A stretch of 64,000 nucleotides of DNA from Gnetum montanum (taxonomy: Eukaryota > Plantae > Gnetophyta). Below, piece by piece: positions 18,007 through 64,000 of the stretch; position 1 is the first letter of the stretch; every line of letters starts with the position of its first letter. The notes beneath the pieces were generated by a model. The model was given only the letters and a program-made list of their open reading frames with translations. It was not told where the DNA came from and did not search any database. The translations under genes and the position numbers were made by a program. The DNA lies in contig MNCI01003125.1 in NCBI GenBank assembly GCA_015680685.1, positions 100,923-164,922 of the forward strand, written 5' to 3'.

Positions 18007-18012
18007 GAAAAC

Positions 18013-27600: not shown

Positions 27601-28362
27601 TACGGCTGTAGAAGACTATGACAAGTTTTGGACTTTCCTTCATCAGAATGTTGAATCCACTCGTGAGATAATTGAATAGCAAATGCAGATGGACTTGGTA
27701 GCCTAGAAGTGTTAAGACATGAAATATTTTAGTGCCAAAGTTTTTGAATGGGGGAAAACCTAGAGAAATAACAAACACGTGTACAAGCTAGAGAATGACA
27801 CCCATCGAAAATTGTACAAAGGTGCTGCTATGGAGGCATTCACATATGAAGCATTCATGAATTCCATTGACACTTCTGAGGCCTATGCCAAATTCAAAGA
27901 GTAGGTAAAGGTTACGAAATCTCCTGACTTAAAAGTGGACCTTCCCATAGGAGAGACTGTGACCGTCTCCTTTTCCCTGGGACCTTCAAGTGGACGATCA
28001 TGGAAAGGGAGAGAGTTGCTATTGTGGCTACTAAACCTAGCAATAGGTGTTGGATGGACATCATGACAGAGGAGGTTTGGCATTACCTTAGGCTCGGTTT
28101 AGACCGAATACCCTTTGAGACTGACGCAGGCCCTTCTCAAGTTAGTTGCTTTACTGTGTTGGTGTTTATGCTCTATTGTAACTTGCATTTGTTGCCCTAG
28201 CTGACTGCTTCATTCCCAAGATGTAGGCTCTAGATGAGGGTGCAAGGCTCGTAGAGGGAGGGAATGAAGAATTGGCAAAGGGCAACATAGGAGAAGGTAA
28301 TGCAAAAAATTGATGGCACAAAGGTGAGCGGCGAAGCTAATGTAAATAGAGAAAACCCATGA
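24624..28362 (+). pseudogene. Antisense accessory gene of B (promoter and first exon deleted)
   Basis: ORF 24614-24967 RPKLIILKIRGVLC..WFRVGAWNFLQFLLDHFSVIVWSS; intron 25075-25156; acidic stretch EEEEEEEEGDEE at ~26675-26710; colinear with A. Confidence 0.8.
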
Positions 28363-28538
28363 CTGCATGGGAGTCTCTTTTTTTTCTTTTTTTTTTTAAA
28401 TTTTGAAATTTTGAAATTTTGTACAAGTTTTGCAAACATTGTCAACAGGTGAAAGTTTTGAATGGAATGAAAAACTTCAAGAAAGAAATTGATTTTGCAT
28501 TAACTTATGTATTGTGTAAAGTTTCCATGCTTTCATAT

Positions 28539-28722
28539 GCTAGTTTTAGGTCGTTTCGGGCCTTTGCATAACATGCCAAAAGAATTGTATGTTAATAAAG
28601 AAAAACAAAACAATGCTAGTTTTAGGCCATTTCGTGCCATTGCTAGTTTTAGGCCATTTCGGGCCATTGCTAGTTTTTGGCCGTTTCGGGCCATTGCTAG
28701 TTTTAGGCCGTTTCGGGCCATA
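28539..28722. repeat. 27-bp array of B (1+4 units)
   Basis: gctagttttaggccrtttcgggccatt units. Confidence 0.9.
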
Positions 28723-28837
28723 ATGTAGCATGCCAAAGAATGGCATGTTAGTGAAACAAAAAGTAATGAATGTGTATGGGCTGGCAAGTGGGTGGGAAGT
28801 AGTAGAGTTGCTAGGCTATGCATAGCTACCTCTTGAC

Positions 28838-31800: not shown

Positions 31801-32576
31801 CAACTTTGGAATGGGCGAAGAAGCAAATGGGGCCCACCATGTGGATGGGTCGAGGCTCACCATACATGAATGTAGGAATAGAGACAAAAGTCATGTACGA
31901 TTGTGAAATAGGCATGGTATGAACATGTGGAAGGGTAGCCACGATTGGTGTATGATGTGCTACAGAAATAGAATGCTGAACAGTCGGTAGAGGGATAGTC
32001 ATTAAAAACAACATAGGTGAACTAGGTGAAAGAGGGTGTTGGGACCCCACAAGATTGGCATGGCTACCCATAGCAGATCTAATCGTGGGTTGTGGAAGCG
32101 TAGGCATAATCACAAAGGGAGCGGTGACATACAATGGCTTGGACCAAAAGGACTGGGTAGGAGGGACAGGAACGGGGTTGGTTGGACCTTCCTCGTCTGA
32201 TTGGGAATCAAGTTCCTCCTGTCTATCCTAGAAAGCATCATCTTGGTTGGATGTAGTATCCAATTGCTTCCTAAGCCTAGCCAACTGGATTAATTACTCT
32301 AGAAGCCTTTGGTACACTTGTGTTAAAGGTAAAGAAACGCTAGGAGTAGGAACAAACTCCTTCCCATTGTAGTAAGTGAACTCGAAGCTACATTTTTCCT
32401 TGAGTTCGTGTCAATCTCTCAGGTCCTCGATTTTGGATTCTAAGAGATCAACATGTTTCTAGGATCGGGTTTAGCGGTTGTTCGGCACTAGTAGTGCCTT
32501 GAATCGTGATGGGGTCTTCAATGTTGAAGGGAACTTCCATGTTGAAGACATTGGTGGCAATAGTTGAAAAAGCCAT
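28838..32576 (-). pseudogene. gag: gag-protease of B
   Basis: FCDYHQQCGHNTDYC knuckle, gag core, protease VDDGAA; colinear with A. Confidence 0.92.
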
Positions 32577-32659
32577 TGCAAGCTAAATAGTTTTGTAGAA
32601 AAGTGCAACAAGTGCAAAAAGGAAAAAAGAGATTGAAAGGAAACAAAAAGAAGGCTTCA

Positions 32660-33310
32660 CATCTTGCAGGATCCTAGAGGAATCATTGAGGCAACCGATC
32701 TGCACCACACAAAGCATAAGCAACCACAAAAGGATATCACATTTACACCAGTGTGTGATTAGGTATAGAGCACATGCACGACTATTGCAAGATAGGTAAG
32801 CTAACTAGCGATCAAAGGCTTTGCGTCTCATAGGATCCCAGAGGGACCATCAAAGTGACTGATCTGCACCACGTGAGATGGGGTACAAAATGCATGCAAG
32901 ACTACCGTAAGATAAGCTAGTCAACTGGCAACCAATAAGGCTTTATGTCTTGTAGGATTTCAAAGGAACCTTCAAGGCGACTAGTCTATACCACATGTGA
33001 TGGGGTACAGAACCCATGCAAGACTACTGTAAGATAGGCAAGCTAACTAGTGACCAAGAAGGCTTTATGTCTCGTAGGATTCTAGAGGAACCGTCGGGGC
33101 AACTGGTCTATACCACACATGATGGGGTATAGAACTCATGCAAGACTACTGTAAGATAGGCAAGCTAGTTAACTAGCAATTGGAGGTCTCATGTTCTATA
33201 GGGCTCCAGAGGAACCGTTGAGGCGACCGACTTGCACCGTACAAAGCACAAACAATTGCAAAAGGGTGTCACGTTTACACTTATGCGTATTAAGGTGCAG
33301 AAGGCTCACA
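32660..33310. repeat. ~120-bp tandem array in the 5' UTR of B (~5 units; ~2 units in A at ~17655-17960)
   Basis: Repeated gatggggtac..aa..catgcaagactac.gtaagata...ggctttatgtct..taggat. Confidence 0.85.
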
Positions 33311-33367
33311 GAACTATCATGACATGTGAAAAAGGCACCAAAGGCCCTCCTTCTAGTGCCAGAAAAT

Positions 33368-34931
33368 TGTAGCAACCAAAAACGTCAGTGGTTGAAAAAC
33401 ACTAAGGGGTTTCTAGGCACAATAGTCTCGACCTTGTACTCGCAGGAGGGCCGTGCTGGGTGTGGGTGGATACGGGGCACCCTAAACAGTCTGGTCGATT
33501 AGAAAGGGACTTAATTGGCATCTATATAGCCTTTAGTGGCATATGGTTTTAAAAATGGGGATGAAAACGTGAAATAATACTTGAGAGTAAATAATGCAGA
33601 AAAAATAGTGCAAAACGCAACAATAAGCAGGAAACAAGGTAAAATACAGTTAGAAAAATGCACCACTCTAAAGTTACAAGTTTGCTCTATCAAGGTGGAT
33701 ATAGTTGGTTGCACAGCATGGTAGAGTGTAGAGATCTTGAGAGTAACCAAGACATGTAGAGAAAAATAGGTTGTGTACTTGGGTGTGGCCTTGGGTGCTG
33801 ACAATGTGATGATTCTACCAAGGTGCTAGAAATGGAAACAGAACAAAATGCCAACTAAAGATGCTAAATTTTTGTAGTGTCAAACAGAAATCTTACAATG
33901 CTCAGTGCTCAATGTTATGATGCTTGCTTTTTTTTTTTGAACCTCTAGAGATAATCCAACCCTTTGAGTGCTACTCATCGAGGTATTTATAGGGCTGAAG
34001 GGCATGCGAAAGGGACAATTTGGATGCCATGTGCCCCGGGCCCATGTTGACTTGCTGGCACCACACGTGCCATGTAATACCATTAGACCTGCAAGATCAT
34101 TGTAATGCGAGCCTGTTATGCCATAACTATGAGCCTACCACACCGTAATTGCATCGTCAGCATCTGGAGACATGTGCCAATGGTTCAATTAGGTGAAGTG
34201 CATTGATGTCGCACAACCACTCGCATGCCTTGTTGTGCTTTGTAGCATAGCACCTTGTCATGCGTTCCACTACATGTGTATTGCATGCTTGCTACACTAT
34301 GCTACGCTACATAGCATAGTGACTAGCCTTAGTCACGAAAGATTTGCCAATTTGCAAACTTTGCTTCTTGCGATGTAAGACTTTGCAAACTTTGAGCTAC
34401 CTTCTGTCTCTTCTGCAAGATTGCTATGCCTTGCTACGCTATGTAGCTGAGCGTAGCATAGTAGTAGACATGGTCTGTTGCTTCTTGACAGAAAGGGACA
34501 TTGTTGAAGGACTTGAAATTGGGCAAGGGGACTGGCTGTGAAGCTGTTGCCATGCTATGCTACATCACGTAGCGTAGTGTAGTGTAGCACTTTATTCTAC
34601 AATCATCTTCTGAAGCTTTCTACGCTACATAGTGAGGCATAGCATAGTGTAGCAGACTTCGTGACTTAGAAAACTTGTTGAACAATTTCACGCATGCGGA
34701 ATGCTGTTGCCAACTCCGTGCATCATTTCTGAATAGGCTGTTGGCTGGGCAGGCTACGTAGGTGCACAGGAAGGATGACTCGTAGAGCCTATTTACACCT
34801 AAAGTAGAAATTTTTTTGAACTGGCCGACCTGAATTCATAGCATTCTCCTCTTGAAGAACTGTCATAGTGCTTGCATGAATTACAAGGCCTGGTGAAGCA
34901 AGAATGACTTTGGAATTTTTGGGATGTTTCA
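33368..34931 (-). repeat. 5' LTR of B
   Basis: Adjacent to PBS 33345-33361; TATA at ~33982-33993. Confidence 0.95.
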
Positions 34932-34936
34932 AAATG

Positions 34937-36295
34937 TGGATACAATTGGTTGCATGATGCTGGGAGGTGTAGAGATCCCAAAGGTAACCAAGATGTCTAG
35001 AGTAAGACAACTGTATGCTTGAACGTGGACTTGGGAGTCAACCATGTACAATGCTATGAGGATAGTAGGAAAGAGTAGAATAGAATGCCAAAACAAGGGT
35101 GCCAACCGTTTGTAGTGTCAAACAAGATGTTTACAATGCTCAGGAATGCAATGCTAACTTTTTCTTGCCAGCTGATTAGATCACCAACCAATCGATAAAA
35201 CGACTTGCTACTTGTGTTTTTGCCAAAAAAGACCTAGAACTAGACCCTTTGAGCATTTCTCATTGGGGTATTTATAGGGCCAAGGGCACGTGAAAGGTGC
35301 AGTTTCGACGTCATGTGCCTTGGGCCCGTGTTAACTTGTCTGTGCTACATGGACGTGCATGACAGTTGTAATTACGAGCCTATCATGCTGTAATTGCAAG
35401 CTTGCCATGCATTAATTGTGAGCCTTCCATGCTGTAATTGCACCATTAGAGTTTGGAGATGTGTGCCAACGGTGCAATTGGGTGAAGTGCATTGATGTGG
35501 CGTAACTACTTGCTACACTATGCTATGCTTTTTAGTGTAGCATGTTGGCGTAGCGTAGCATCTTGTTACACATCTCGTTGCATGTGTTGGAAGCCTTTGA
35601 AGTGTGATGACTATTTATTGCATATTTTCTACACTATGCTATTCTATGCAGCGTAGCATAGCATAGCAGCTAGCCTTAGTCTCAAAAATGTTGCCAATCT
35701 GCAAACTTTACCTTTTGCACTGTGAAACTTGTTAACTTGCTGATCTCGCCCTTTGAGATGCCCTCTGTCACTTTTGCAAAATTTCTATGCCTCTTTGTGC
35801 CATGTAGCTCAACATAGTATAGTAGCCAACATGGCTTGATTTTTGTCAAGTTCACCACTTTTTGATGGAAGGAGACATTGCTGAAGGACTTGAAGTCGAG
35901 CGAGGGGATTGACTGTCTAGCTTTTGCTACGCTGTGCTACACTATGTAGCATAGCATAGCATAGCACTTTGCTTCTACAAACATCTTTTGAAGTCTTCTA
36001 CATTACATAGAGTACCAAAACTCCTTGACTTAGAAAACTTGCCGAAGTGTTTTACGCATTCTAAGCACCATCAAAAATTCCACGCATCTCTTCTAAGTGC
36101 ATGGTCGACTAGATGAATAGCTCAGGTGGGTAGGCTGGAGAATCCATTTAGCCTATTGGCACTTGGGATAGAAAACTTGTCGAATTGGACAGTCTAATCA
36201 TCAGAGCATCCATCTCCTAAAGAATTACTATGATGCTGCATGAATTGCAAAGACTTGGTGAAGCAAGGATGCCTTCAAAATTTTGGGATGTTTCA
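34937..36295 (-). repeat. 5' LTR of A, part 2
   Basis: Matches ~1518-2891; ends tgtttca followed by the TSD. Confidence 0.93.
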
Positions 36296-36300
36296 CTGAT

Positions 36301-39300
36301 GGGGGAGGTCAGGCCAACCCCATCACCATCCCTCCTACCTAGTCCTTCTGGGCCAGTCCATTATCTATCATAGCTCCCTTTGTGATCATGCCTATGCTCC
36401 CACAGCCTACAACTACACTTGTAATGGGTATCCATGTCACCTTCCTAGCGTATCAATGCCCTTATTCCCCTATTTCATTTGCAGCAACTATGCCTCTGCA
36501 AACCGTTCATCAGCCCATTCTTGTAGCACATTACATACAAATCACGGCTACGCTACTGCATGTTCATACTGTACCTACTTCACAGTTGTACGCAACTTCT
36601 GTTTCCCTTCCTACATTCACATTCGTCCCACTAACCACGGCAGGCCCAGGCCCGTCCACATGGTGGACCCCATTCACTTCTTCACCTATTCCGTAATTTT
36701 CGTAGATGTCTCATTATGTTTGCCCTTAGACCTACCAAACCCAGCAAACCATACAACCCAACATGGGGCTATGGTCTGTTCTGCTGGTGACACAAGTGAT
36801 CTATCCAGCAACCCAACCCATGGTTGCCGCTCCAATAGCAGCACCTACCGGGTGGTGGACAACATAAGTAGCACCATTCGCAGGGGCTATCCCAATGGTA
36901 CTGCCGATGGGTCACACTGCCACCCCTTCCATTCCATAGATCTGAGCTACCTTAGAAATTCCCAAATAGTCCACATCGTCGTAGGGTTTGGATCAAGCGT
37001 TCTAGCTTATCCAAACCCTTATCGAGGAAATAAAATTCCTCAAAGCTATCTAATCTAACACAGTACAAGTCATGGACTTTTACCAAGACAACCCTATTAG
37101 CCCTGCAATCCCTAGATTGACATTACCCCTAGGGATGTCCCTCCCCCACTTCACAAAGTACATTGGGGAGGGAGATCTCAATGCACATCTTGTTACCTTT
37201 AGGTCTAAATCCCTTCTATTGCAACAATGGCTGCACATGATTATCCTTGTCTTTGCTATGTCCATAGCTGGGAAAGCCTTGGATTGGTACCTTGTGCTAC
37301 CACACTCATCTATTTCAACCCTAGAGGAGCTACTAACCTAGTTCGTGACACACTTCAAGTATAACTTAAAGGCAGAAACCATGCTGGATCAGTTGATGAG
37401 CATGAAGAAGGATCCTCTAGAACTGGTCCAGAAGTTCATCCAGTGTTGGAGCGCAACCCTTAACAAAATCCACGAGCCCATCACGGAGGACCACTTTCTG
37501 ACCATCTTTAAAGATGCAGTGAATGACTTTATTAAGTCTAAGTTGTACTACCTCACTCCTTGCACTCTTAGTCAATCCTTCGCACAGACCAAGAGTATAC
37601 AGGATGCAGCTAAAGTGAGAAAAGATCCGGCCTACATTACCTACAAACATACCTTCAAAAAGAAGGATAAGGGTAAGGCCCCAACAACCATAGTGGCTGC
37701 TATGGTGACTGAGGCCAAGCCCAAACCTATTAACAATGGTAACAAGAACAAAAAGAAACCAGATGTACCCATAGCTAACCCCGTGCCCAAGTATGGTAAT
37801 GTGCCACAACCTCCAGTACCCGCACCTGAGACATCTGCACAACCCAAACCAAACTTTGAGCATAAAGATCGCTCAAAGTAGACCCCACTACCTCTCAAGC
37901 CTTCAGAACTTTTGAAGCAGCTACTGGTAGCAGGGCACATTCAACATAAGCAGATGTTGGAAGAAGAAATCAGGAGACATCAACGCTACTGTGAGCTCCT
38001 TAGGAACCCCTCTTTGGCCCTACCCAATGAGCCCCCAGTTCCTAAGGATTTCAGGTTAGATAGGTTTTGTGACTACCACCAACAATGTGGTCACAACAAG
38101 GATTATTGTTTGGCGTTGAAGGATGACATTCAAAGGATTATTGATCAGGGGAAACTGATGTTGGATGAAAGCAACCCAATATGCTCTGAGAATCAATCTC
38201 TGCATGTATACATAGACCCCCTCAATGCTAACAACATTAGTTATGTTATCAACACCATCAGCATTGATACTGATCCTATGCCAGCAACCGTTCATGGTTC
38301 ATGTTCCTTAGTGTAGTGCACCAGCATCACCAGTGGTTGGCCAAAGGTCACAACAGCTATTTGTCCTGAGAGTCTATCCTCAGGCATCCACCCCCATGCC
38401 ACCTATTAGCAAAACCATGCCACCCCACCAGTTAACATCGTTAGCTCCGTTTATCATTAGGGGACTGACCCATGAGACAGCCCCCATCCTGTGCAAGATA
38501 GCTAAACAACCTTCTCATCCTAAAAAATGGGTAGTGCATTTTGCAGGTGAGACGTCAAAAGGAAGTACCACCCTTAGTATTTCCAAGCGTACATCTTCAT
38601 CCCCTACATCTATGCCCTCATCACTGAAGAGGGACGTCACCATAACCATACTGTCTATGTCACCATGCCAAGAAGGGTCTAAACCTAGACCTGAAATTGC
38701 CCCTCCTTGAGAAATTTGTCTTCTAGGACAAATAGAAGAGGAGAAAAGGGTTAAAAAGGGGGGTAGCCAGGACCTCTTGGATGCCCTCAGTTAGGTCAAA
38801 AAAGCTCTAAAATAGAAAAGCACTACATTGAGCTTGTACAACCTAATCATGACATCCGTCCCACACTGTGAGGCTCTAATCCACATGTTGACAATGATTC
38901 TGGTCAGCAAAGACATGCTAGCGGAAGAGGAAGTGATCCACTTGGTCATGCTTCCCTCTACACCTACAAAGCCAGAATCATCTCAACTAACTTTCTATGA
39001 TGATGCTATCAGGGAAGATCCCGAAATGGGCCAGGTGACTACAGCACCCCTATTCATCAAAATTTGGGTCAGCCAACATTGGATCTAAAGGGTACAAGTT
39101 GATGATGGGGCTGCCATGAACGTCATCTCTTTCCCTATTGTAGAAAAGTTAGGCTTGGTTGACCAGATCAAACCCACAATGATGTCATGCCTAAGGTCAT
39201 TCAATGGGGCGCGAGTCGTAGTGAAAGGCATGATCCACATAGGCTTCGTGGTAGGGGATTAGTTCCCTACAAACGCGACATTCATCATGGTCGAGGAGAT

Positions 39301-39661
39301 GCTTGGGTTTAACCTGATCTTGGGAAGATCATGGTTAGCACAACTTAGGACTATCTCTTTGTCCATTCACTAGGAAATTCACCTACCATACGTAGGTAGG
39401 GAGGTGGTGATCCATGGTGACAAGGTAGCAGTGCAAGCAAGTAATAACATAGACATGGAGTAGGACTCAGAGGTAGTAACCTCTAAGAATGAAGTGCCTT
39501 CTTACGCATGCACTAATCATCTAGTGGGAGAATCAGCTCAGCAAGCCAGTTACCAAAACGAAAGTGCATGAGCTAAGTTGCCCTTCCATGTGGGGGACAA
39601 TGATGCAAATGAAGGCCCTGGAAAAGCACCTTGGCCTTACATTCCACTCAACCTATGATGG
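36301..39661 (+). pseudogene. gag: gag-protease of C
   Basis: ORFs 37072-38316 carry the gag core and FCDYHQQCGHNKDYC; VQVDDGAAMNV protease at ~39090-39125. Confidence 0.92.
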
Positions 39662-39825
39662 GTCAAGAAGTAGCTATGCATAGCATAGCAACCTCATTGC
39701 TTCCTACCCAGTTGCCATCCTTTGTACATTACCATATTTTGTTGTCTGCATCCATATGTCTACGAAAGTTTCCAGTTAGCTGTTGTTCAAGTTGTTAACG
39801 TATCATCTCTTTAGCATGCTACGTA

Positions 39826-40133
39826 GAGGCCCAAAATGGCCTAAAACTAGCTATGAGCTAAAATGGCCTAAAACTATGCTATGAAGAGGCCTGAAATGGC
39901 CTAAAACTAGCAATGGCCTGAAATGGCCTAAAAATAGCTATGACCCGAAATGGCCTAAAACTAGCTATGGCCCAAAATAGCCTAAAACTAGCTATGGCCC
40001 GAAATGGCCCGAAACTAGCAATGGCCTGAAATGGTCTAAAACTATGCTATGATACAAACCAAAATGCCTTAAAACTAGCTATAGCCAAAAATGGCCTAAA
40101 ACTATCAGTAGCCCGAAATGGCATAAAACTAGC
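39826..40133. repeat. 27-bp array of C (~10-11 units)
   Basis: ggcccgaaatggcctaaaactagc(ta/aa)t units. Confidence 0.92.
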
Positions 40134-40310
40134 ACATAAAAGCATGAACATTTTACACAAAACATAGCATGTAGATAATGCACGAGTTAGCACAAAATCA
40201 ATTTTCATTCCCGAAGTTCTCTTTTCTTTATTCAAAACTATTGTCTTTGAAGCAATGTTTGCAAAAATTTTACAAAAATTAAAAATTTCAAAAAAAAAAC
40301 TCTCATGCTA

Positions 40311-43300
40311 TCATGGGTTGTCTCTGCCTTCATCATCTTCGTCATTCCCTCTTGCATCAACTTCTTTTGCATCGCCTTCCCCTACGTTGTCCCCTGCTGA
40401 CTCTTCATTCCTTCTCTCTATGGGCCCTGCACCCTCATCCGGAGCCTGCATTGTAGAAATGAAGCCGTTAGCTAAAGCAATGCAAGCAAGATATAATAGA
40501 GCATAAGAATTAACACAATAGAAAGCAACCAACCTGAGCTGGACCCATGTCCATATCGAAGGGTATCCAGTCTAAACCGAGCCTAAGGAGGTGCTAGACC
40601 TCCTCTGCCATGATGTCCACCCAATGCTTATTGCTTGGTTTAGCATCTATAGCAACTCTCTCCCTTTTAGCAGTCATCCACCTCGATGGTCCTAGAGAAA
40701 AGGAGACAATTGCTGTCTCTCTTATGGAAAAGTCCACTTTCCAGTTAGGAGATTTTGTAACCTTTAACTACTCTTTGAACTTTGCATAGGCCTCAGAAAC
40801 ATCAATGGCATTTACGAATGCTTTACACATAAATGCCTCCATAGCAATGTCCCTATATAGTTTACGATAGGTGGCATGTTTCAGTTTATACATATGTTTA
40901 TGATTTTTCTGGGATTGCCCCCCATTTGTAAACCTTGGCACTAAAATCTTTGAAATACTGACATTTCTAGGCTAACAAGTCCATTTGCATCTACTGTTCT
41001 ATTATTTCCTAGGTGGCTTCAACATTTTGACGTGCGACTGTTCAAAATTTGGCATAATCTATTATAGCCATGCGTCAATCCTCATTATTAGTATCACGGG
41101 CTATGAGGAATTCGTTCCTTGACTTGAGATCCTCCACCTCGGCGCTCAGGTTGACCTTCTCTTACTTAGCTTTTTGGACCTGTTTCCACAGGTCCTCATT
41201 GATCCACTTATACTCCCACAAGGAGAATGCCGAGTGCAAAGCACATTTGCAAGCCTCTTCGTATGCGCAATGAGACACCTTGTTCACTTCAGGTGGGAAT
41301 GTAGGCATGACACTGACTTTCAAAGATCGTGTCCTATCCCATTTGAGTCGAGAGGCTACCATGACACAAAGAGCATGTTAGTCACATTAGCATAGTAAAG
41401 ATTAACAAATTTGAAAACTCTAGCATAGCAAGATGAGAGAACCTATCACTACTACTTACCTACTTCAAGGTCCACCTGCTGAAGGTGGTTGATCATGTCA
41501 TCGACGATTCCCTGCATGAACGCAAACTTATCAGGGATCTCGGCCCATGATTCCACATGAATTGGAGGGGGTCCTATAGCATCAATAGTGGTGCCTATCA
41601 TATAACTAAATGTGTCAACAATGATCGAAATGGGCTATGATAAGGTAGAAATATTTTTGAACTCACTAGCATCCAATTGCGGCCCCCCTTCCTTCTGATG
41701 CAAAATGATGATGATAGCCTTGGCAGAGGTCCTTGCCAAGTCTGTACAAGCCTCTTTTTCATGTGTTGGTGCCTTTCCTTTTGATAGACCAACATATTTT
41801 TTATTCAAGGGAGACTCCTCTTCATCTCCAAAAATACCTTCCTCATTAGTAGGAAGATTCTACCTAATGACGAGAGCCCCTACCTTAGCGATAGGAGCTC
41901 CTTTCTTCTTGACCAGGGCCGTTTCTTCTGAGACTGGGGCCTCTGTGTCTTAGGGGTCAACACCTCTTCATCACCTTCTTTGTCTTCCTCTTCTTCTTCT
42001 ATCAGCAAAGAAACATGTTTGCATTAGCTCAAAACAAGTTAGCTTAAAGTAGGCGCTACATTATGCTACGCCGTCTAGCATAGCTGGCATTAACAAAGTA
42101 AGTGAATGAATAAACATGAACAAAAGAATTTAACAATGGGGGGCTGCATCCTTTGTAGCTTAAGCTGTAGTATTTGCCCCTCCTCTTCCTCTGTGTGAAG
42201 GGTTTCCTTAGCTAGAGAAGGTCTTATCCACTACAAGTTACTGGCCGTAGTCTCGGCTATGAGAGGCTCCCCCTGTGACACGCTACTGGCTACAGCAGGG
42301 GCATCTCTCCTATGTTTTCTTGGCCATGAAAGTTGTGGGCCATCTGATCCTTAGTTGTTACAGAGAACAACTCCCCAATTATTTCTAGGGGATCTTGGGC
42401 TTGGGTGATCCAAAGGATCTAGTGGATCCACAGTTTGGAAATTTGGTCATGATTTCACATGACCTAGGTTCCATTCTCATGAACTACCAGAAACTCAGTG
42501 AAATGCTTCAGAAAGGCTATGTAAAAGGCATCATGTATATTGGAACGGGACTCAAGTTTCTTATGGAGCCCAAAAATTTCAGCTTGCAAGCCTTTACACA
42601 AAAAATTAGCCTAGTTGTAGCAGGTCCCTTACTTCATGATCTCACGCATTACCTAGGCCTGCTCAATCCCCAAGACCTGCCCTTGGGAAAGCAGCTGGGG
42701 AATGCACAAGCACGAAAGATAGGGTAAACCTCCTTGGCAGGTCCTACTTTAAGCTTCTCCATGGGAAGCCCCTTCTGCTCCTTGGCAATCCTTAACCATT
42801 CCTGAATGTTCTTCTTCTAAAGGGTCAGCTCCTTCCTGGACTTTGACCCTATGAGGACACCATCAGCAAGGATGTTGAAAAGATCTATGAATAGCTAGTC
42901 ATTGATTTCAATGACCACCCATACATCCTATATATGCGTGCAGAAGTAGCTTTCCTTGTTGGAAAAGGAGTTGACCAAGGAGAGCATCTCGACAGTAGGA
43001 ATGCTTGGATTTAGGGCCAGGAATAGATCCATAAGCCTAGCATTTTGGATATTCTAGACCAAGGAGTTTGAAGCTGCACCATTTATCCAGCATTGGCTTG
43101 TATCTACTTCTCTGTACTTAAAGTAGATGTTTGCCTCCTGTGTCTCGATGGTCACCACCATCACCTCCAAGGCCTTTTTCACCTCTATAGCAATTTTCAC
43201 AAGAAATGTTTAGCATAAAAACATAGAAAACATAAAATATTGCAAAGACACTTAGGCATGCATACACTTATTTTTTAGCTTACTAGGTCTGTATGGCAAC

Positions 43301-44756
43301 GGGAACGGTAGAATACTAACTAGAAATTATTCAATAGTGACCGGTTTGAAGGGTGCCCATCCCTCATCCAACCAACCACTCTCCTTGCACCTATTGTAGG
43401 GAATGGGGTATAGGTCCGGGTAGCTATGGTATTCACCCCCGCATTGACCAATCACAATTGCACATAGGTTCTCAGCAGAAGAGAACTGTTGCAGGGCTAT
43501 CTGTGCTATAGTCAACAGACCTGTTTGGTCGTGAAGCCCATCCTTGTTGATGTAAAACCTAGTAACAAAAACATACTATTAGAGTTTGGCTAATATAGTA
43601 AGCGTCGCATAATACAGCAGAATAGGGCTACAAAACTCACCCGCCAACACAGTAGATCTTCCCAGGTGGGTTTTGGAAGCACGTTGCCATATAACGTGCA
43701 ATGAACAATGTGTTGTAACGATGGTAGCAACTGTACTCAGGCATATCCTAGATCCAGGCCAAATGCCTTAACTCTATGAGGCATTAATTGGATCCTTCTC
43801 CCTACCTATTAAAGATTGTCCTATTCGTCAAAAACCTCAGGATGCCTTGGCTTGCCCTAGGCAATAGAAATTCTATTATGATGGCTACCTCTTCCTCCTC
43901 TAAGTATGAACCAGTGATCACACTGAAGTGTTGGAGGAGGTATTGTAGGAACTCGTGTGCTCCTTTCCTGAACTAGACTCCCTGCTCCCCCACACGTATA
44001 TTGGGAGGAGGAACATTGGCCACAGGTTTGCCTACATAACATAGGACCCCTGCAATTTCTAAGATAATCAGAATTGGCCTTAGCCCCATCCTTCACAACA
44101 CACCCAGCAAGTGTTAGCATCATGTCCAAGTGCAATGCATATGCAACATAGCAATACCTAACATTTCATGCATATAGCGTAGCATAACCCTCTTCCCGCA
44201 CATAACGTAGTAAGAACATGAAAGCGATAGTGTAGCAAAAATAGACTAGCATAGCAATATAGGGATTAATTCTAACAGGGCGATTAACAATATGCCCTAA
44301 CAAAACATGTGTCACACTATCACATCACACATGGCCAAGCCCTCCTAAGGGTCCTATGCTATGCCATTCGAAATCCAAGTAACTTAAACTGTCCAACACC
44401 CACCGTTATGGCAACCGCAGCAGTGGTGGTTTAGGTGGCCTTGCATGCAACGTCAACATAGTGTCTGTGCATTCACTGTGGCTGAAATGAAAACAACGAT
44501 GGTGCAAAGGCTAACAAAATGACAACGTGATGATAGAAAACATGAATAACTAAAGCTGAATCATAGAATGAAAGCAGAAAATAAAAAAAATGATAACAGA
44601 ATCATGAGGAAGCAAAGGAAGCATAGAAGCCTACCGGGTCAACGACGTGTCCTCCCATGTCACAATGCTCACTGGTGTCACATGCCCTAGGGTTTTCTTT
44701 ACCTCCTCAATCTTTTCAAGTGCTAAGTGAGTATGTTCTTTCTTTGGAGGCATCAT
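40311..44756 (-). pseudogene. Antisense accessory gene of C
   Basis: MMPPKKEHTHL start; RPILIILEIAGVLC; intron 43559-43640 (GG|GTGAGT..TAG|G); ends GRDNP*. Confidence 0.8.
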
Positions 44757-45270
44757 CCTACTTGTAGAAGTTTCCTCATTACTATGCAAAGAACTACCTT
44801 GCTCGCTGTTAGCACAATTGCTCTATGCTCCAAAATTGCTTTATGCTTCGAATATGGGCTCTTCGCTCTTATGGTGAGAATGACAAGCTTACTAGGGTTT
44901 AATCCCTATTTATAACTATAATGGTGAAAAAGGAAAACTTGCCACACTCTCTCTCCGTTTAATGCAGAGTGAGCCATGCAGTGTAGCATGCTCGCCACAA
45001 CATCGTAGCAGTGTTGGCATTAAAACCTTGGCATGCTTCAAGCTAACTGTTTGCTTTCCCAAAAAATGATATATATATATATATATATTTGTTATGGGTC
45101 CAAAAAGACCTTAAACTAGCAACCCCAGCGTAGCANCTTTAAACTGAAAAAATTTTAATCTTTACATCATACTTCACTAGTTATAGCTTGTCATTGCTTT
45201 ACAAGATTTTGTTATTCAAGATTACTACCAATAGGTGCCTCTTAACCAAGCTTTCATTTCATTCTAATAG

Positions 45271-48200
45271 GTTGGGTAAAATATGGAAATCCATTGCAAT
45301 CTCTCCATGCCTTTAGCTTTAGCAGGTCCACATGGCAAGCTTGCAAGACAATTAAACCCAGACTTGATCAACTGGGGGCCAACCAAAGTTAGCACCATAG
45401 CATCCTTCGAAACATCCCTAGACTGGCCTGAGCATTTAGTGTGGATCCTATATTTAGAGGCCAGGGATGTAACTAAGGACCCTCTTGTCGAGATGCCTAT
45501 GACCACATACAAGGGGGATGTAAAAATGTTAAAACTTAGCTCCCTCTTAGATGCACAAATACATGAAAATGTAGCTAAGATTCTACAAGAAAACATCAAA
45601 GTCTTCGCATGGTCATACAGTGACATGCTAGGTTTAGATCCACAACTGATACCACACAACATTTTCCTAGACCCGCACACGAAGGTAGTCAAGTAGAAAG
45701 CTCATAAGGTTAAACCAAAAATTGCACTAGCTGTAAGAGATGAAATCACCAAGCTATATCAAGCTGGTTTCATCCACATAGCTGATTACTTAGAATGGAT
45801 GTCCAACATCATGGTGGTTTCTAAAAAATGGGAGGGATACAAATCTGTATAGACTTTTGGGATCTAAATAAGGAAACAATCAAAGATGACTTCCTGCTTC
45901 CAAGTATTGATAAACTCATCAACACTACAGTTGGTCATGCTCTATTATCCTTCATGGATGGTTTCTCTGGCTATAACCAAATTTGCATCAACCTAGAGCA
46001 CTAGCTAACAACAACCTTCATGACCCCATGGGGTACCTTTTGTTATGCCATGATGCCTTTTGGGCTCAAGAGTGCTGGGGCAACCTACCAGTGAGCCATG
46101 ACTTACATCTTCAATGACTACATCCTAGAAATGCTAAATGACTAGGTGGATGATATAGCGGTCAAGTCCAAGGAGGCAGCTGATTGCCCACGCGATCTAG
46201 GGATAGTCCTTAAGTGTTGTAAAATGCATGATTTTTTCCTTAACCCTAAGAAGTGTGTCTTTGATGTGAAGACCATATGCATGTTAGGGTTCATAGTATC
46301 AGAGGCCAAAATACGGGTGGACCCTAACAAAGTTAAGGCCATCATCAACCTGGAACCTCCTACAAACTTGAAATAGTTACGTGGGTTGCAAGGTAGGGTA
46401 CAGTTCATCTAAAGGTTTATAGCAAAGTTGATTGACAAGTTACACCCCATGCAACATGTTCTAAAGAAAGGGATTAACTTCGAATGGACAACCCAGTGTT
46501 AAAAGGCCTTCGATTACCTGAAGAAGGAGCTTTTGCACCTCCCAACTATGCATCCTCCATAGAGGGATAAGCTTTTCTTCATCTACCTTGCCACATCTGA
46601 CACATCTATCATAACACTATTATGTTAGAAATGAGATGATGGATCTAAAATACTAGTGTATTATCTAAGTCATGCATTAATAGTGCATGCGGCGAAATGC
46701 AATGAGGTGGAAAGGAATTGTCTTGCCTTAGTATTTGTGTTAAAAAAGTGGAGGCACTACCTATTTCGTAGTACAATTCACATCATTTGCAAAAGAAACA
46801 TACTTCGGGCTATTACTAACAACCTATATGAAAGTAGCAGGATAGCCCAATGGAAAGAAATAGCCAAGGAGTTCTACTTACACTATGTGAGCCAATAGTC
46901 AATGAAGGGTTAAGCCATAGTGACCCAAATCAGAACTTTACCTGTCAATGACTAGGCAACCATAGATCCTGAATTCCCAGACAAGCATGTTGGTACTATC
47001 AACATCATCCCATTGCACCTTGAAGCTACTTTACACTTTGATGGTGCCTCAACCACGTGAGGAGGTAGTGCAACTATTGTCATTATGTTGCCCTCTAGGG
47101 AAATGTACCCGTTTGCTTATCGTTTTGTGTTCCCCTATGCCAACAATGTGGTAGAGTATGAGGGGCTTCTCATAGGCCTCTTAGCTACCAAAACACTACA
47201 CATACAACACCTAGCAATTTGCAGGGATTCACAACTAGTTGTTAATCAAACCACCGAGGTATACGCCTACAAAGCTACGCACCTACAACCCTACTGCAAT
47301 CTAGCAAAAAGCCTACTTAAGCAATTCGCAACTACAGATGTGCAACACTTGCCACACAACGAGAACACCATGGTAGTCGCCTTAGCCACCCTAGCACTAA
47401 ATATCCCACCACACTCATTTTCAAGTCTGTCAACTTCAATTGTTGAATGTACTGATCTTATCACTCAGGTGGGACACATGGCCTCTATCAGTGCTGTGAA
47501 TATTCAAGAGTGGTACGCCAACATTAAAGCCTACCTACAATATAGTGAACCCCCAAGAAAAATAACATCTACCTAGAGAGATGTGATTTGCAAGCATGCC
47601 TGGCAATATACGCTCATGGGAAATGATGCCTTGTGTAGACGTTCCTACGATGGGATATTGCTACCACGTGTGGGTGAGGAGTAGGTGCGGAAGGTAATTA
47701 ATGAAGTACATGAGGGACTATGTGGTCGACACATAACACCTAGGGCTATGACTATCAAAATAAGATGCCTAAGGTACTACTAGTCCCATATGGAGCATGA
47801 CTACTTGTCAAAATTCAAGACGTGTGACATGTGCCAGAGATACGAAAATCTATACACGTCTCACCTATGAACTTACACCCAACGCAAATCACATGGCCTT
47901 TCCAACGATGGGGACTAGACCTCATAGGACCTATCATGCCTAAGTCCTCCATAGGGCATAGCTTCATTATCACTGCCACTGAGTATTTTACTAAGTGGTT
48001 GGAAGCTATCCCCCTGAGGAAGACGACATCTCAATAGGTTTGTCATTTCATTCTAGAAAACATTATGATAAGGTTTGGGCTTCCAATGACTATCGTAACC
48101 AACAATGGACCATAGTTTAGTAGTACGGAAACCCAAACCTTCTATAGTAATGTAGGCATCAGGCAATCATTCTCCTCCCCATATTACCCACAAGAGAATG

Positions 48201-48715
48201 GGCAAGCAGAGGCTATAAATAAGTCCATCATCAACTTGCTTAAGTGGATGCTTAGCAACAGCAAGAGGTGGTGGCACAAGAAAATACTCTATGTTTTATG
48301 GGCTTATAGAATGACACGTTGGACCATGACAAGTAAGAACCCTTATAGTTTCGTTTATGGATCTAAAGCTGTGTTGCCTCTTGAGTTGTAGGTACCGTCA
48401 CTCCAGTTGATCCTATCTGATGTTGTGAGCAAAGACTAGAATAATGAGTCAAGAATTATCGACCTCAATTCAATAGAGGAGGAGCGTGCATAAATTCTAA
48501 GCAGCATAGAGCACTACCAAAGAAAGCAACGATAAAGGAGAGACCTCATCCTCAAGGCCATCCATGAGCATGTGAGCAAATTCTCACCCAACTGCGAAGG
48601 TCCATACATGGTCACCAAAGCCTTTGGAAACAGAGCCTTCAAGCTGGTGGACATGGACAACAATGAGTTTGCAAACTTGGTGAATTACTCATACGTCAAG
48701 CTCTACTACATCTGA
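45271..48715 (+). pseudogene. pol: pol of C (RT-RH-aRH-INT)
   Basis: VFAWSYSDMLGLDPQLIPH, LNPKKCVF, LHFDGAS, NNVVEYEGL, WPFQRWGLDLIGP. Confidence 0.95.
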
Positions 48716-50323
48716 AGCATGAACACTATAAGCATTGTCTACTATGACGTAAAATTGGCACAGCTCGTCTGCTATGATGTAAAACTGGCAAAGTTGACAA
48801 TCATCCGCTACGATGTAAAACTGGCACCTACAGTCTGCTGGGACCTTAAACTAGCACAACTCATTTGCTATGACATAAAATTGGCATAGCTTGTATGCTA
48901 CGATGTAAAACTAGCACAACACATCTGCTATGATATTAAACTAGCACATATGGTCTGCTGGGACCTTAAACCAGTACATGGTCTACCAAGATCTTAAACT
49001 AGATTTACGACACTCCCCAGCATGCACCTACACTAATCACACCATCAAGCAAGCATGCACAATGCTAATGTGGGGTGGAACGTTGTAGTTCCAGGATGCA
49101 GTCCACGATGCACTGAGAACACGATCTGGAACATATGCAATGTTGCTAGCCCTTGCATCTTATTGATCCCCTGGAGGTGTCGTATGACGTCTCACTAACC
49201 CCCTAGACCTACTGTTGCCATGAACCATTACCCTAATGGTAGTTCCTTGGTTAGTGCCTACTGCTGGAGTTCCTGCAGTATTGTGGCCTAGCCAAAATAT
49301 TATTACCCTCTAGATCCCTACTAGCGTCTAGGCTCAAGCGACATTTAGCTATGTGATAGCTGATCCCATAGTTGAACTAAGCATGCATGCCTTTGGTAGA
49401 GATTCTAGAGCATCCGCACTCATAGAAACTCCCTGCTCCTTTGATGCTGGCTCCTCCATGTTGATGTTGCCAAGGCCGCTGCTGGCCTTTCTAGTTTGGA
49501 CACCATACACTAGCAAAGGTGTCCAAGAGCTTCAACAACATCTACAGTAAGCAAGACCTTTGCCCTCATTTTGCATCATGGCTATTTTGCTCTCTATCGT
49601 GTTTGTAGGTTGCGGCCAAAGGTGCGTCTCGCCACAGTAGCAAATGCTACAGCATTGTGAAGTGGTTTTCTTAGCTAGCTTAGCTACCTTAGAGTGCACA
49701 TCCTGCCCTACCATCTATGCCCCTTCCCTTTACCTTGCTTCTCACATCCACAATTCCTACTTGTGCCCCTCTTTTACAAGCTTTTTCCAATGCCTATTAA
49801 GCCCTTCTATTTGCTCAACTGCAAAGTTCATGATGTGCATAACATAGCTTGCCACATGGGAAGCATTTGTAGGTAGGTTAAAGCCCCCACGTGGATGTAA
49901 CACAACTCATCCAGGGAAAGAAACACCTATCCTACAGCAAGGTTATTCGAAAATGTAAATGGAAAAACAACAAAGGACAAAAGTGTAAGAGAGCATAAGC
50001 CATTTCACAATCACCCTTCTCACACGTTCCAACAAAGAGGTAGAAGGTCAAAAAAAGTAAAGATGAAAATGCAAATGACTCCCTCATGAGCACTTTGATG
50101 AGGGACTCTACTAAGCCTAGTCTTTATCCTTTTCCTAAGCATCTTTTCTCCCTACTTTGCCCTTTCCCCTTGCAAAAAACCAATGCAACACTCTCAAGCA
50201 CAGCTAAGCGACATCTTGATGATCATTGAACAACAATGTTAGTGTTTTGTCTTCTATGGTGTTTTCTATTCTTTGTCAACATCTATCGGGCTCCTCCTCC
50301 AGATGTCGACAAAGAGGAACCAA

Positions 50324-51809
50324 TGGAACACCCTAAAATTTTGAAGGCATCCATGCTCCACTAGGCCCTTGAAATTCACGCAGTGCCATGGTAGTTCTTC
50401 AAGAGATGGATGCTCTGATGTTCAGACTGTCTAGTTCAGCAAGTTTTCTACCCCTGGTGTCAACAAGCTAGATGGATTCTCTAGCTTGCCCACCTAAGTA
50501 GTTCACCTAGCCGACCGTGCACTTAAGAGAGATGCATGGAATTGTTGGCAGTGCTCAAAACGTGCAAAATGCTTCAGCAAGTTTTCTAAGTCAAGGAGTT
50601 TTGCTACGCTACACTACGCTATGTAGCACAGGAGACTTCAGAAGAAGTTTGTAGAAGTGAAGTGCTACATTTTACTATCCTACGTAGTGTAGCATAACGT
50701 AGCAAAAGCTAGACGGTCAATCCCCTCACCTGACTTCAAGTCCTTTAGCAATGTCTCCTTCTATCAGAAAGCAGCGAACTTGGCAAAAAGTAGGCCATGT
50801 TGGCTGCTACACTACACTGAGCTACATGGCATAGTGAGGTGTAGTAATTCTATGAAAGTGATAGAAGGAAACTCAAAGGGCGGGATCAGCAAGTTCACAA
50901 GTTTCGTAGTGCAAAAGGCAAAGTTTGCAAATTGGTGACGTTTTTGCGACTAAGGCCAGTTGCTATGCTATTCTATGCTACGTAGCATAGCGTAGCATAA
51001 CAAATATATAATAAAAAGTTAGTGTGCTTCAAAGGCTTCCAACAGATGCAATGAGACGCGTAATGAGTTGCTACGCTATGCCAACATGCTACACTAGAAA
51101 GCATAGCACAGCATAGCAAGTAGTTACGCCACATCAATGCACTTCACCTAATTGCATCATTGGCACACATCTCCAAACTTTAACTATGCAATTACGGCAT
51201 GGAAAGATTGTAATTACAGCGTGGTAGGCTTGTAATTATAATGGTCATGCATGTCCTTGTAGTGTAGACAAGTCAATGCAGGCCCAAGGCATGTGGCATT
51301 TAAATTGCCCCTTTCACATGCCCTTGACCCTATAAATACCCCAATGAGCAATGCTAAAAGGGGTTCGGTTTTGGGTCTTTTTGACAAAAAACACTAGTAG
51401 TAGGTTGGTCTATTGGCCAGTTGGTGATTTGATCAACTGGCAAGCAAAAGTTAACATTGCATTCCTGAGCATTGTAAACATCTTGTTTGACACTGCAAAT
51501 AGTTGGCACTCTTGTTTTGGTATTTTTTTCTGCTCTTTCCTGCTATCCTCATAGCATTGTAAATTGTTGATTCCTGAGTCTCTGTTTAAGAATATAGTTG
51601 TCTTGCTCTGGACATCCTGGTTACCTTTGGGATCTTTGCACCTCCCAGCATCGTGTAACCAATTGTATCCACCTTGATAGAGTGAAGTCATAATCTTGAA
51701 GTAGTGCATTTTCCTAACTACATTTTACTTTGCTTTCTTGATTATCATTGCATTTTTACATTGTTTTCTATCCCTCTTGCATTTGAAGTTATCATTTTAT
51801 GCTAGAGGT
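50324..51809 (+). repeat. 3' LTR of C, 3'-truncated by ~190 bp
   Basis: Reverse complement of the LTR of A; TATA ctataaatacccc at ~51330; homology ends at gctagaggt. Confidence 0.92.
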
Positions 51810-51872: not shown

Positions 51873-52109
51873 TTGGCCTAGCAACATGAGCAATATAACT
51901 TACTCTGTGCAAAGGTTTAGGAAAACCTACCTTTGGATGTGCACAAATTCGAAGATAAACATAGCTTCGAGTTTGCTTACTACAATGGGAAGGAGTTTGT
52001 TCCCACTCCTAATGCTTCCATACCTTTGACATAGATGAATCAATGGCTTCTAGACTAGCTAATCCACTTGGCTAGACTTAGGAAGTAGTAGGAAACAATA
52101 TCTAACCAT
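51873..52109 (+). pseudogene. gag: Isolated 5' gag fragment of the A/C family
   Basis: Matches the reverse complement of A ~17215-17450 and also 1017-1137. Confidence 0.85.
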
Positions 52110-53075
52110 ATTTCATTATGAGGATGGCTTTAGTGTAGCCTGTGGTGATGAGCATCACATCTCTTGAAGCAACTATAGCTGTAATAAAGGTAAAAACATT
52201 ATTAATATCATGCAAAGGTAAATCAACAAGCATATGTAAGAAGTCAAAATGATAAATTCTTATATGGAACAAATGACATGTGAGATGGAGCTGGTGATGT
52301 AAGAAGCTCCTCAAGGTTGAGTTCACCACCAACCCATTCCTTGTCAAGCTAATCATAGGTCTTGCACAACCTAAATTCCTTTATGTAGTAGATAGGGTAA
52401 TCATTTAGATCAACTCACAACTACTCTAGGATGGCCTCCCAAATTTTCAAACTAGAGGAGAACACCTCTAGGGAAATACAAGTCAAGGAAAGAGCCTTGT
52501 CCTCATCATGGAGACCCTGGTCATCAACTTTGAATCTAGCATTAAGAATGAGCAGTAAGTGGTTAGCAAACTTAGCATGAACCAATAGCAAAAAATATAA
52601 TGCAAAAATCATAGGAGCACTTACCCTCCAATGTAGTATACCATTCTAGATGGATTTTGGAAGAAGGTATGCATGCGCAGAGAAACAAAGAGGATGTTGA
52701 TCTTGTTGTAGCAAGAGAACTTTGGCATTTGCCAAATCTTGGATAAGGGATGAGTGCCCCTAGGGCCTTAGCCCAAACCATGTGCTCTATCATCACTGTT
52801 AGTGGGCTCATTGGACATAAATCTCAATATGTATTGGTTGGCCTTGGGTAGCAATGTCTTAGTGATGACAGTCATAGCCTCCACTACTAAGTATGATTAC
52901 ATCATCAGACTAAAGTGCTATAACAGAAACTCTAGGAACTCACGTGCTCCTAGTTGGAATGACACTACCTGATAACCCACCCACATATTTGGCATAGGCA
53001 TGTTGGGCATCAGCTCACTCTTGTAACAGAGAATGTGAATAAGGTCCATAACAACTAGGATGGGCTTTAGTAACA
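52110..53075 (-). pseudogene. Antisense accessory gene of diverged element D (FCP1-like exon and following exon)
   Basis: PILVVMDLIHILCY..SFQLGAREFLEFLL*HFS..IWQMPKFSCYNKINILFV..FFQNPSRMVYYIG|gtaagt; intron 52536-52624; next exon GFKVDDQGLHDE. Confidence 0.78.
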
Positions 53076-55260
53076 CTTTGCAACTGCAAAAGCAACATAC
53101 AAAGCATTAGTATACACTAGATACAAAAATACTTTAAATTAAACTTAGAAAAAATTAGAATGAAACAACATAGGTTAACAAAAATATCTTAAGGCCCTTA
53201 TGGCCTCACAGGTATAGGATGTCAACATATACATTTGATGCACCTGGTATTCACTAGGGCATAGCATGTTTCACATAGCATTAGCATTTTGTTCCACATG
53301 TTTGCATATTTAGTGTTATAGATTGCATGTTTTGGCAATTTAGCATTAGCATTAGCATTTTACATTTCAAAAGCTTACCATTTTACATAGAATTTTTTAA
53401 TTTTTTTCTAAATTTGGATAGTGTAGTTTGGAAAACTACAAAAAAGAAATTCTAACTCTTGGTTACCCCTTGGAGGAGCAGAGTCTAGAAAAATGTAAAT
53501 ATTTCAAATTCTAACTCATATTGACTATGCTTTGGAGACTGCAGAGTGTATTCATAGTTTGAAAATAAATTATAACTACCAGCTACACTCCCCCCCTCCC
53601 CCAAAAAAACTAATTGGCCACATGTACTAAGCGTTAGCCACAGCTATGGCCCCTACAACCACACCAACAATGTTGTCGCATGTCACACCGCTTGCTTTGC
53701 CTAGTCAAAAAATAGAGGGTGCAGAAAACATGCCCTTGGGCCCTACATCTCCCCTTAGACCTTGCCATGCCAAGGTGAAACACACAATGCCCCCATGCCT
53801 TAGTTTACATAACCCTCGTTCATGTGTTCATAGGGAAAATAAGATTGTGGAAATTGTAAAAACATGGTAGAAACCCTTTGCTACATCCCTATCCCATGGC
53901 CTATCATATTGGCTATTGTTGATGCTCTCATCCTTGTCCTTGCCTTGCACCTAAAATTTTTAAAATTCTAAAAACAAAAAAAAATGATAGTCCCCTACTA
54001 CAACCTTGCCTTATAGTGAGACACTCGTGGTGACCACCAACACCTACTCCCATCCTGTGCACAAAAAAAAACACAAAAATAATTGCAAAAAATCATCACA
54101 CCTTAGCCTCGTAGGTGGTAGCCCTAAGGTAGCCACCAAACCCTAATCCCCTACCTTATGCAAAAAATCCCTTAAAATAGAAAAAAAATTGTAGAGCCCA
54201 CTACCATGCCCTTTGACCCTATGGATGGAAGCTATTGGTAGTCACTATTTAGACCTAAATTCCTACCCATGTGATGAAAAAGAATTTTTAGAAACAAATT
54301 TTTTTTAAAAAAACCCTATGTAGGCCTATGGCCTTCTCATCTATGGCAATGTAGGCTACTGTAGTGGCCATGACCTTCACTTTGTCCTTGTTGCACAAAA
54401 AGCCCACACTCATCAAAACCCCCATCCAACCTCAAACCCATCATAAAAACTAGAAATCCTTTTCCCATGCATGTGCATGCCCTCCTTGGCTATAGCATCT
54501 ATAATGTCCATGGCAGCGGTGGACCTTGCCATAGCAAGGTGCCATCAAAACTAAGCCCCAAACCCTAAAAGAAATGATCAAAGTAAGGCAAAGAAAAATG
54601 AAATAGGGGGAGCATAGTTAGGGTACTTGGTGGATGGTGGTGCCCTCTGTTCCTCCACATGTGCCACAATAGGCATCCCAGTGCTTGCTCTCCCTCATCC
54701 ATGTTGGTCAGTCCAAGGTGTTGGCATCCAATTTGGCATGACATTCTAGTGACTATGCTCTTCCAACTATGCTATACTCTAAAAAGTTTGCATTTTCAAC
54801 TTTGACAATGATAAATTTACTTAAGGTGAAATGCACTTTTATATTCCCTAGGACCACTTAATGTTTCACTAACCCGAAGACTATGCTCAACAGTGCGAAG
54901 CATAGTTGGGTGAGAGCATAATCACCAGACTTAGAAAATTTCTTGATTTTTCTGGCCATCCTAGACTTAGAAAAATTTTATATTTTTCTCATTGCCTAGT
55001 GAATGCCCAGTCTAACTTTGCATCCCAAGTGCTCTCTACCTTGCTTAAATATGCATCTAGCACATATAATAGTTTGCTAAGACCTTAAATTGGCATCCAT
55101 CACTTACCAAGGCCAAAAACTAGCCCATGCATTTCTTACTTTTTTAACATCATATGTGCATATTTAGGAAAAATTTTATTACATTGTTTTTCTTCATTTT
55201 TATGCATATTGCTCTTGCTAACATAGGTGTAGCTTGACATTTTTCTAGTTGTCTTTGTAG

Positions 55261-58200: not shown

Positions 58201-58572
58201 TGTGATGGCATGAGCAACTGATCTATCCACTCTAGGCCTACTACACAACATGTAGAATTGCAATAGTTAAGATACCATATAGCTTGGTTTACAAGTTTGA
58301 ATCAATCTTGCCTCTTGAATTGTAGGTCCCATCACTTTGAGTAATCCTATCAAGCTTCATCAATGAGGTTCAAAATGACAAGTTTAGGACCATGGACCTC
58401 GATTCAATAGAGAAGGAGCACATGTTGACAGTTGATTGTATCAAGTGGTACCAACAAATGCAATGGCAAAAGCACTACCACAATCAACACCAATGCCTAA
58501 TCAAGAAAGGGGACCTAGTCCTAAAGGCTATTTGTAAACATGCAAACAAATTCTCAACCAACTAGGAAGGCC
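55261..58572 (+). pseudogene. pol: pol of element D (older, diverged Tat family member; INT C-terminus and aRH N-terminus deleted)
   Basis: DWVSNIMVVPKK, KDDFPFPSIDQLID, NDYIDD, LKKWRHY, TNNVVEYEGL, GDLQLVVNQV, integrase core; preceded by gtctttgtag acceptor-like site. Confidence 0.9.
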
Positions 58573-63875: not shown

Positions 63876-64000
63876 NACGCGAGGCGAGAGATGTCCTCTT
63901 CCGATATGGGGACATCAAGGAGGCGCAGCGGTGGCTTAGCCACGCGGCGGCCCCCGCTGTGGTGGTCGCCAACCTCCAGACCGCAGGGCTGCTGCACCTG

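Follow-up and report, generated by a model that had tools for sequence, protein, structure and literature searches.

How a retrotransposon makes its Pol proteins when its protease and reverse transcriptase genes lie 5.6 kb apart is the question raised by a 64,000-nucleotide stretch of the Gnetum montanum genome (GenBank assembly GCA_015680685.1, contig MNCI01003125.1, positions 100,923 to 164,922, forward strand), referred to here as the window, with all coordinates given relative to its first nucleotide. The window consists of nested, decayed long terminal repeat (LTR) retrotransposons, with self-comparison revealing four relatives, A, B, C and the more distant D, of an old Tat-type Ty3/gypsy family with the order gag-protease (PR), stop codon, 5.6 kb spacer carrying an antisense gene, reverse transcriptase (RT), RNase H (RH), additional RNase H (aRH) and integrase (IN). 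Any autonomous LTR retrotransposon depends on its packaged RNA for the production of RT and integrase, and in this family that production has to bridge a 5.6 kb gap occupied by a whole intron-containing gene. We favour, at a probability of about one half, the reading in which the PR-RT spacer is spliced out whole, as an Ogre-like intron, to yield a Gag-PR-Pol polyprotein.

Copy C lies on the forward strand (1017-1184, then 36298 to about 52109, from self-comparison), and its decayed gag-PR gene (36298-39673, +), recognised by Pfam and by matches to Tat polyproteins, ends at a TAG at 39671-39673. The Pfam matches to Retrotrans_gag (E = 0.0017) and gag-asp_proteas (E = 0.0056) both fall below the curated cut-offs, and the PR stretch is similar to the PR region of angiosperm Tat polyproteins with an E value of about 1e-11. 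The decayed pol gene (45271-48710, +) begins with a leader of ~100 codons, followed in order by the Pfam domains RVT_1, RT_RNaseH, RVT_3, Integrase_H2C2, and rve, corresponding to RT, RH, aRH, and integrase. The spacer between the two genes, 5609 nt long in C and 5670 nt in A, is found at one and the same position in all of A, B, and C, and the layout is common to these three independent insertions and to D; a chance insertion of the spacer in each copy was rejected, the place being the same in all four.

The spacer is heritable as part of the element, and the gene within it is under selection. This antisense multi-exon gene, here termed the cargo gene (40545-44914, −), has homologous exons in A, B, D, and a further element, E; on the minus strand it possesses a TATA box (44907-44914), and its GT donors lie at 44634, 43640, 43283, 41666, and 41459, all five of which match U1 at 6-8 of 9 positions. 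When only the sites that are identical in A and C but changed in B are counted, as for the cargo and PR counts given here, five of seven cargo segments show an excess at the third codon position (e.g. 19/122, 16/135, 47/132), similar to that of the protease core (17/134, 10/141, 46/133), with one segment showing none. This third-position excess indicates that the cargo was a selected gene, maintained by purifying selection. The cargo has no significant Pfam match, with PF10536 (plant mobile domain, PMD) and PF04195 (TRP28) both absent, and neither protein database searches nor a sequence search of the PDB returned anything significant; the predicted fold of a cargo exon was of poor quality (pLDDT 47), too poor for a structure search. 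The Atlas gave plant clusters at a low recognition score, one with DUF1985 in 10% of its members at 0.90, and a PMD/DUF1985-like cargo is only a lead. The pattern of the cargo may resemble that of plant-mobile-domain-like accessory proteins.

The 3' boundary of the spacer has the appearance of a splice acceptor. A preliminary description of the window had proposed splice sites at six positions, and all six are correctly placed, with GTCAAG found in A, B, and C, and TAG in A, C, and D. In C the TAG ends at 45270, in A at 8134, and in D at 55260, each time in phase 0 relative to pol, with a branch-like YTRAY motif 27-29 nt upstream in both the A/C and D lineages and pyrimidines at 59-65% of positions -40 to -3. 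The branch-like site, polypyrimidine tract, and TAG described earlier are indeed present in these three copies and are together rare among stops, the combination being found at 32/3914 and 38/3579 stops of the window under thresholds taken from the three observed sites, and at 1.2-3.7% in shuffles, in which TAG makes up 24-26% of stops. The acceptor is judged to be above chance because this branch and tract context is rare among stops yet occurs in two lineages, and on these sequence features it is probably real. The acceptor closes a U-rich 3' spacer end (45100-45270, +), with the branch-like TTAAC at 45242-45246 and a short repeat motif at 45112, and the equivalent features are seen in A at 8134 and in D at 55260, where the motif copy lies at 55116. 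T content on the sense strand is 0.42/0.33 immediately inside the donor end of the spacer and 0.35-0.45 in three of the four 60-nt windows ahead of the acceptor.

Divergence between C and D changes character at this boundary, with the second codon position the most conserved from 45271 onward (19/30, 11/30, and 16/30 by codon position at 45271-45360, then 27/50, 14/50, and 25/50), and a flatter profile immediately upstream (16/23, 12/23, and 13/24). Across pol, the divergence of C and D is of coding type (37/101, 21/100, 57/100). The distance from the acceptor to the first methionine codon of the pol frame differs by 9 nt between C and D, with the phase kept, and no stop interrupts the codons in between in A and D.

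At the other end of the spacer, GTCAAG (C 39662, +; A 13803, −; B 28837, −) directly follows a codon boundary of the PR frame, which reads ...PYIP(L/I)N(P/L)x(W/Q) up to this point. The stop reported shortly after the donor is likewise present as an in-frame TAG three codons on, shared by A, B, and C (C 39671-39673). The donor GT and the gag-PR stop lie within a conserved island (39636-39690, +) with a three-way identity of 0.855 over 55 nt, which places it in the top 0.7% of 55-nt windows, although it was chosen after the fact. Sites at which A and C agree are kept in B at 26/27 positions of 39662-39690, compared with 120/170 upstream and 30/58 downstream, and the island continues ~17 nt beyond the gag-PR stop, between poorly conserved flanks on both sides. 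A shared RNA fold was looked for at the island and none was found. We take some cis-element to be present within the island, with a splice donor as one reading.

A 27-bp tandem array with a short AAACTAGC-type motif follows at 39828-40133 (+; TRF and motif map). This motif clusters at three places per element, namely after PR, before the acceptor, and after integrase (C 39828-40133, 45112, and 48742-48978; A 8397-8550; D 55116 and 58574-58605), reaching 16 and 22 copies per strand where about 3 would be expected, and with a copy ~150 nt upstream of the acceptor in both the C and D lineages. The motif may serve as a binding site for a protein, or it may be the footprint of recombination.

Under the favoured reading, the unspliced transcript would both encode Gag-PR and act as the genome, taking the cargo gene into every new copy, whilst in a minority of transcripts a phase-0 donor in the PR tail, most likely that at 39662, would be joined to the acceptor at 45270 to encode Gag-PR-Pol, with a weak donor perhaps controlling the ratio. 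The cargo introns would outlast reverse transcription because they are oriented opposite to the element, and expression of the cargo would depend on a TATA promoter of its own near 44910. The arrangement likely arose when a repeat-plus-cargo cassette entered an older, short PR-RT intron, since the U-rich sense ends remain and the motif found after integrase also flanks the cassette, and since a second and distant gene of cargo type follows pol in D. The suggestion that an Ogre-like intron has become a cargo bay is partly supported, by the layout, the heritable and selected cargo, the acceptor, and the island, with splicing itself, the choice of this donor over the five other conserved phase-0 GTs, and control of the ratio as inferred steps.

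Several observations weigh against removal of the spacer as a single intron, beginning with the donor. The donor was correctly described as weak, matching U1 at 4/9 positions in A and C and 6/9 in B; 164 of the 293 sense GTs in 38851-45270 reach four matches and 22 reach six, such that the donor alone is not above chance and is weaker than the five cargo donors. It is also not unique, being one of six phase-0 GTs among the 10 GTs common to A, B, and C in 39300-39830, and a phase-2 GT at 39670 scores as well or better. The linker from PR to the donor lacks a third-position excess (22/69, 14/64, 15/59). Joining of the two sites is in frame, as claimed, but this carries little weight: with the acceptor TAG itself being the final stop ahead of pol, phase 0 is automatic, and the argument from phase is weak and partly circular. 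Furthermore, the published Ogre gap is some twenty times shorter, averaging 274 bp. No protein matching the pol leader was returned by database protein searches, nor was one among the 150 best of 43,223 profile hits, which match RT and, in part, PR, the seven named among ten examined being angiosperm proteins; with no database protein matching the leader, none could show it fused to PR. Finally, a conserved in-frame ATG, left unweighed in the preliminary description, lies directly past the acceptor in C and D and may allow Pol to be translated separately. In C this ATG (45283-45285, +, 12 nt past the acceptor) has A at -3 and G at +4; the ATG of D, at +21, aligns with it and stands nine codons before a shared P-L-x-L-x-G-P-H, with amino-acid identity between C and D beginning at the shared methionine and absent before it. 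At the homologous codon, A has ATA.

RNA reads were mapped from runs X11-X15, five of six RNA runs that carry the same species label as the best-matching DNA, with ~2% of X11-X13 and 26% of X14 and X15 sampled and three reads needed to call a joint. The 1170 reads of the four RNA runs X11-X14 gave one listed joint, inside the tandem array, and no PR-to-pol junction, at a depth of 0-5 at both sites (donor bin 1.9, 0.15, 0, and 5.0; acceptor bin 4.1, 0.4, 0, and 2.2), which is a further point against the intron. When X11, X14, and X15 were taken together with the DNA run X1, the 15 of 377 joints listed all came from DNA contigs, with none at the donor or acceptor. However, 926 of the 1170 reads are less than 90% alike and so derive from other copies, and the cargo's own introns likewise gave no joint in the X11-X14 reads. 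With the cargo introns undetected and the depth low, the junction test had little power, and it neither supports nor refutes splicing. Reads of X11 are skewed to one strand in the same direction over most of gag, spacer, and pol; the library type is unspecified and nothing is concluded from this. Loose ends with A tails at 40299 were considered as a poly(A) site and rejected, there being a genomic A run at that position.

The ATG past the acceptor is the starting point for a different reading, in which Pol is translated alone, the acceptor ends an intron of the 5' leader, and no Gag-Pol fusion is made, with the donor lying either near the LTR, as in foamy viruses, or in a short exon transcribed from a bidirectional cargo promoter. 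We consider this possible, if doubtful. An ATG at the homologous codon of C, in strong context, and of D, with identity starting there, is what such a start would predict, and the cargo TATA box stands head-to-head with pol ~360 nt from the acceptor, with a CT-rich stretch and a donor-like GTGAGC between them; the weakness of the PR-side donor and the precedent of foamy viruses (PMC5294762) point the same way. Set against these are the ATA of A, and the phase: that the two lineages agree on phase 0 would be a matter of luck (about 1 in 3), and they keep it across a 9-nt length difference, the codons between being open in A and also in D. Some other role would have to be found for the conserved island at the end of PR, an unfused Pol would require its own packaging route, the literature searched yielded no plant precedent, and the shallow RNA reads show no start or joint near the acceptor. 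A fuller version, which we hold to be marginally more doubtful still, has three transcription units: Gag-PR from the LTR, the antisense accessory gene, and a Pol with an ATG of its own, translated from an RNA spliced separately and perhaps driven head-to-head by the promoter of the accessory gene. If true, it would amount to a foamy-virus-like, Gag-independent Pol in a plant retrotransposon.

Two further explanations carry less probability. The six conserved phase-0 GTs in the PR tail would accommodate mixed routes, with the spacer removed stepwise or from another donor and with the island serving mainly to end a short gag-PR RNA and pol reached by another route, and the T-rich sense sequence past the stop fits a 3' untranslated region equally well; no direct evidence of RNA ends was found, however, the loose ends at 40299 matching a genomic A run, and we regard this account as improbable. 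Least likely, and by our estimate very unlikely, is that the splice-like sites are products of chance and the layout a non-autonomous rearrangement that other elements copied in trans. In its favour, every copy in the window is decayed, TAG is frequent among stops, and no spliced RNA was seen, but divergence is of coding type in pol (C compared with D) and in PR and cargo (B compared with A and C), indicating selection on these genes during the lifetime of the layout, and the acceptor features recur in two lineages. Excision of the whole spacer as one Ogre-like intron remains the reading that we favour.

The 3' LTR of C (50321-51809, +) is preceded by a purine tract and has lost its own end to a deletion. 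The C block has at each end a copy of a 120-bp direct repeat (90% identical) of 5' internal sequence (1017-1137 and 51988-52109), and 5' internal sequence is found after the truncated 3' LTR, which together suggest a tandem or recombined unit rather than a plain insertion. Copy A (1185-18346, −, with its 5' LTR continuing at 34932-36297) is inserted in C, measures about 18.5 kb, and has an LTR pair 85-87% identical. Copy B (18345-34931, −), inserted in the 5' LTR of A, has an LTR pair 84% identical and has lost the acceptor region and the start of RT to a deletion that joins, at B 24279/24280, the equivalents of C 44451 and C 45936. Both A and B are flanked by a 5-bp target duplication with one mismatch. 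A 345-bp tandem duplication of 98% identity in the 3' LTR of B (18582-19276) is either recent or an assembly artefact. Primer sites starting with TGG follow the 5' LTRs of A and B (17990-18006 and 33346-33362, −), 5-6 nt past the LTR end, and presumably fit plant tRNA-Asn rather than the tRNA-Arg typical of Ogre.

Relative D (52270-61629, +) has antisense cargo 5' exons at 52280-53100, about 2.2 kb ahead of its pol (55261-58570), which is about 66% identical to that of C. The unity of D is deduced from order and orientation, because neither an LTR nor gag-PR can be seen for D. Past the integrase of D lies another, distant gene of cargo type, antisense (59394-60450, −, in the interval 59394-61629) and ~22% identical to the final cargo exon of A, and D may therefore carry cargo-like genes on both sides of pol; no cargo similarity was found in the post-integrase region of C. 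Element E (61630-64000), GC-rich and much less decayed, is inserted in D, with open cargo exons adjoining a partial LTR. It was rejected as evidence of a 3' cargo position, with neither a purine tract nor an LTR start seen, and is likely a deletion product. An N at 63875 together with a 123-bp near-duplicate (63461-63583 and 63878-64000) resembles an assembly join.

Both the order RT-RH-integrase and the additional RNase H, as identified by Pfam, place the family within Tat. In a FastTree phylogeny of 30 rows (27 picked from 151 candidates, 4 dropped for short matches, labels uncurated), the window RTs form their own long branch beside the Ogre-like and Retand-like rows, with weak support (0.865 and 0.308). 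As they do not group inside the angiosperm Ogre-like rows of this rough tree, we describe the family as working like Ogre and do not file it as Ogre. No relative was found in metagenome scans, and viral contigs gave seven loci, the one examined being a Retand-like element in which PR runs on into RT. The published accounts that we searched yielded no extra gene in the PR-RT interval, with the per-element records of REXdb and Steinbauerova 2011 as places that may hold cases. Annotation pipelines that expect PR and RT to be neighbours would probably break such elements up or overlook them.

The closest functional parallel is offered by Ogre, with the reference group taken as REXdb non-chromovirus/OTA/Tat/Ogre, or Tat IV/V of Ustyantsev 2015. 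The GAG-PROT/RT gap of pea and Medicago Ogre is a partly spliced intron (PMC6317226, PMC4408406), the gap averages 274 bp in elements of 7.7-24 kb, and the primer site is tRNA-Arg in 89% of elements. Shared with Ogre are the fusion of PR to Gag, the gap before RT, and the aRH between RH and integrase, as well as large size, an extra gene, tandem arrays, and a 5-bp target duplication, a feature not specific to Ogre. The aRH order is not Ogre-specific either, as it also occurs in ferns, clubmosses, hornworts, and gymnosperms (PMC10508981), with the dual-RH structure of non-flowering plants also reported in PMC13468544. Unlike in Ogre, the gap in the window spans 5.6 kb and holds the extra gene, and splicing, which is established for Ogre, is here proposed. 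Extra open reading frames (ORFs) of Tat elements are described as 5' and sense, or 3' and antisense, to the polyprotein (PMC4408406, PMC7264820, PMC11963269), whereas that of the window lies between PR and RT and, in contrast to Ogre/Tat V, has no PF10536 match. In Retand (Tat VI) and Tat III/V, an antisense extra ORF (TRP28, or PMD with a coiled coil) lies after pol and before the 3' LTR. The window shares with Retand a conserved antisense gene with neighbouring tandem arrays, and the second gene of D is at the 3' position, but the main gene differs in lying between PR and RT, in its several introns, and in having no TRP28 or PMD Pfam match.

Foamy viruses provide the model for a separately translated Pol, their pol being expressed from a singly spliced RNA (PMC5294762), with the pol acceptor reportedly inside gag. 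They are animal retroviruses in which PR travels with Pol, unlike the elements of the window, where PR stays with Gag, and no homology is claimed. Were pol of the window likewise to have its own start, this would be a mode of expression not found described for plant elements. Should the gap instead be one intron, as we favour, it would constitute a third site for accessory genes in Tat elements, besides the 5' and 3' positions, at no cost to the reading frame.

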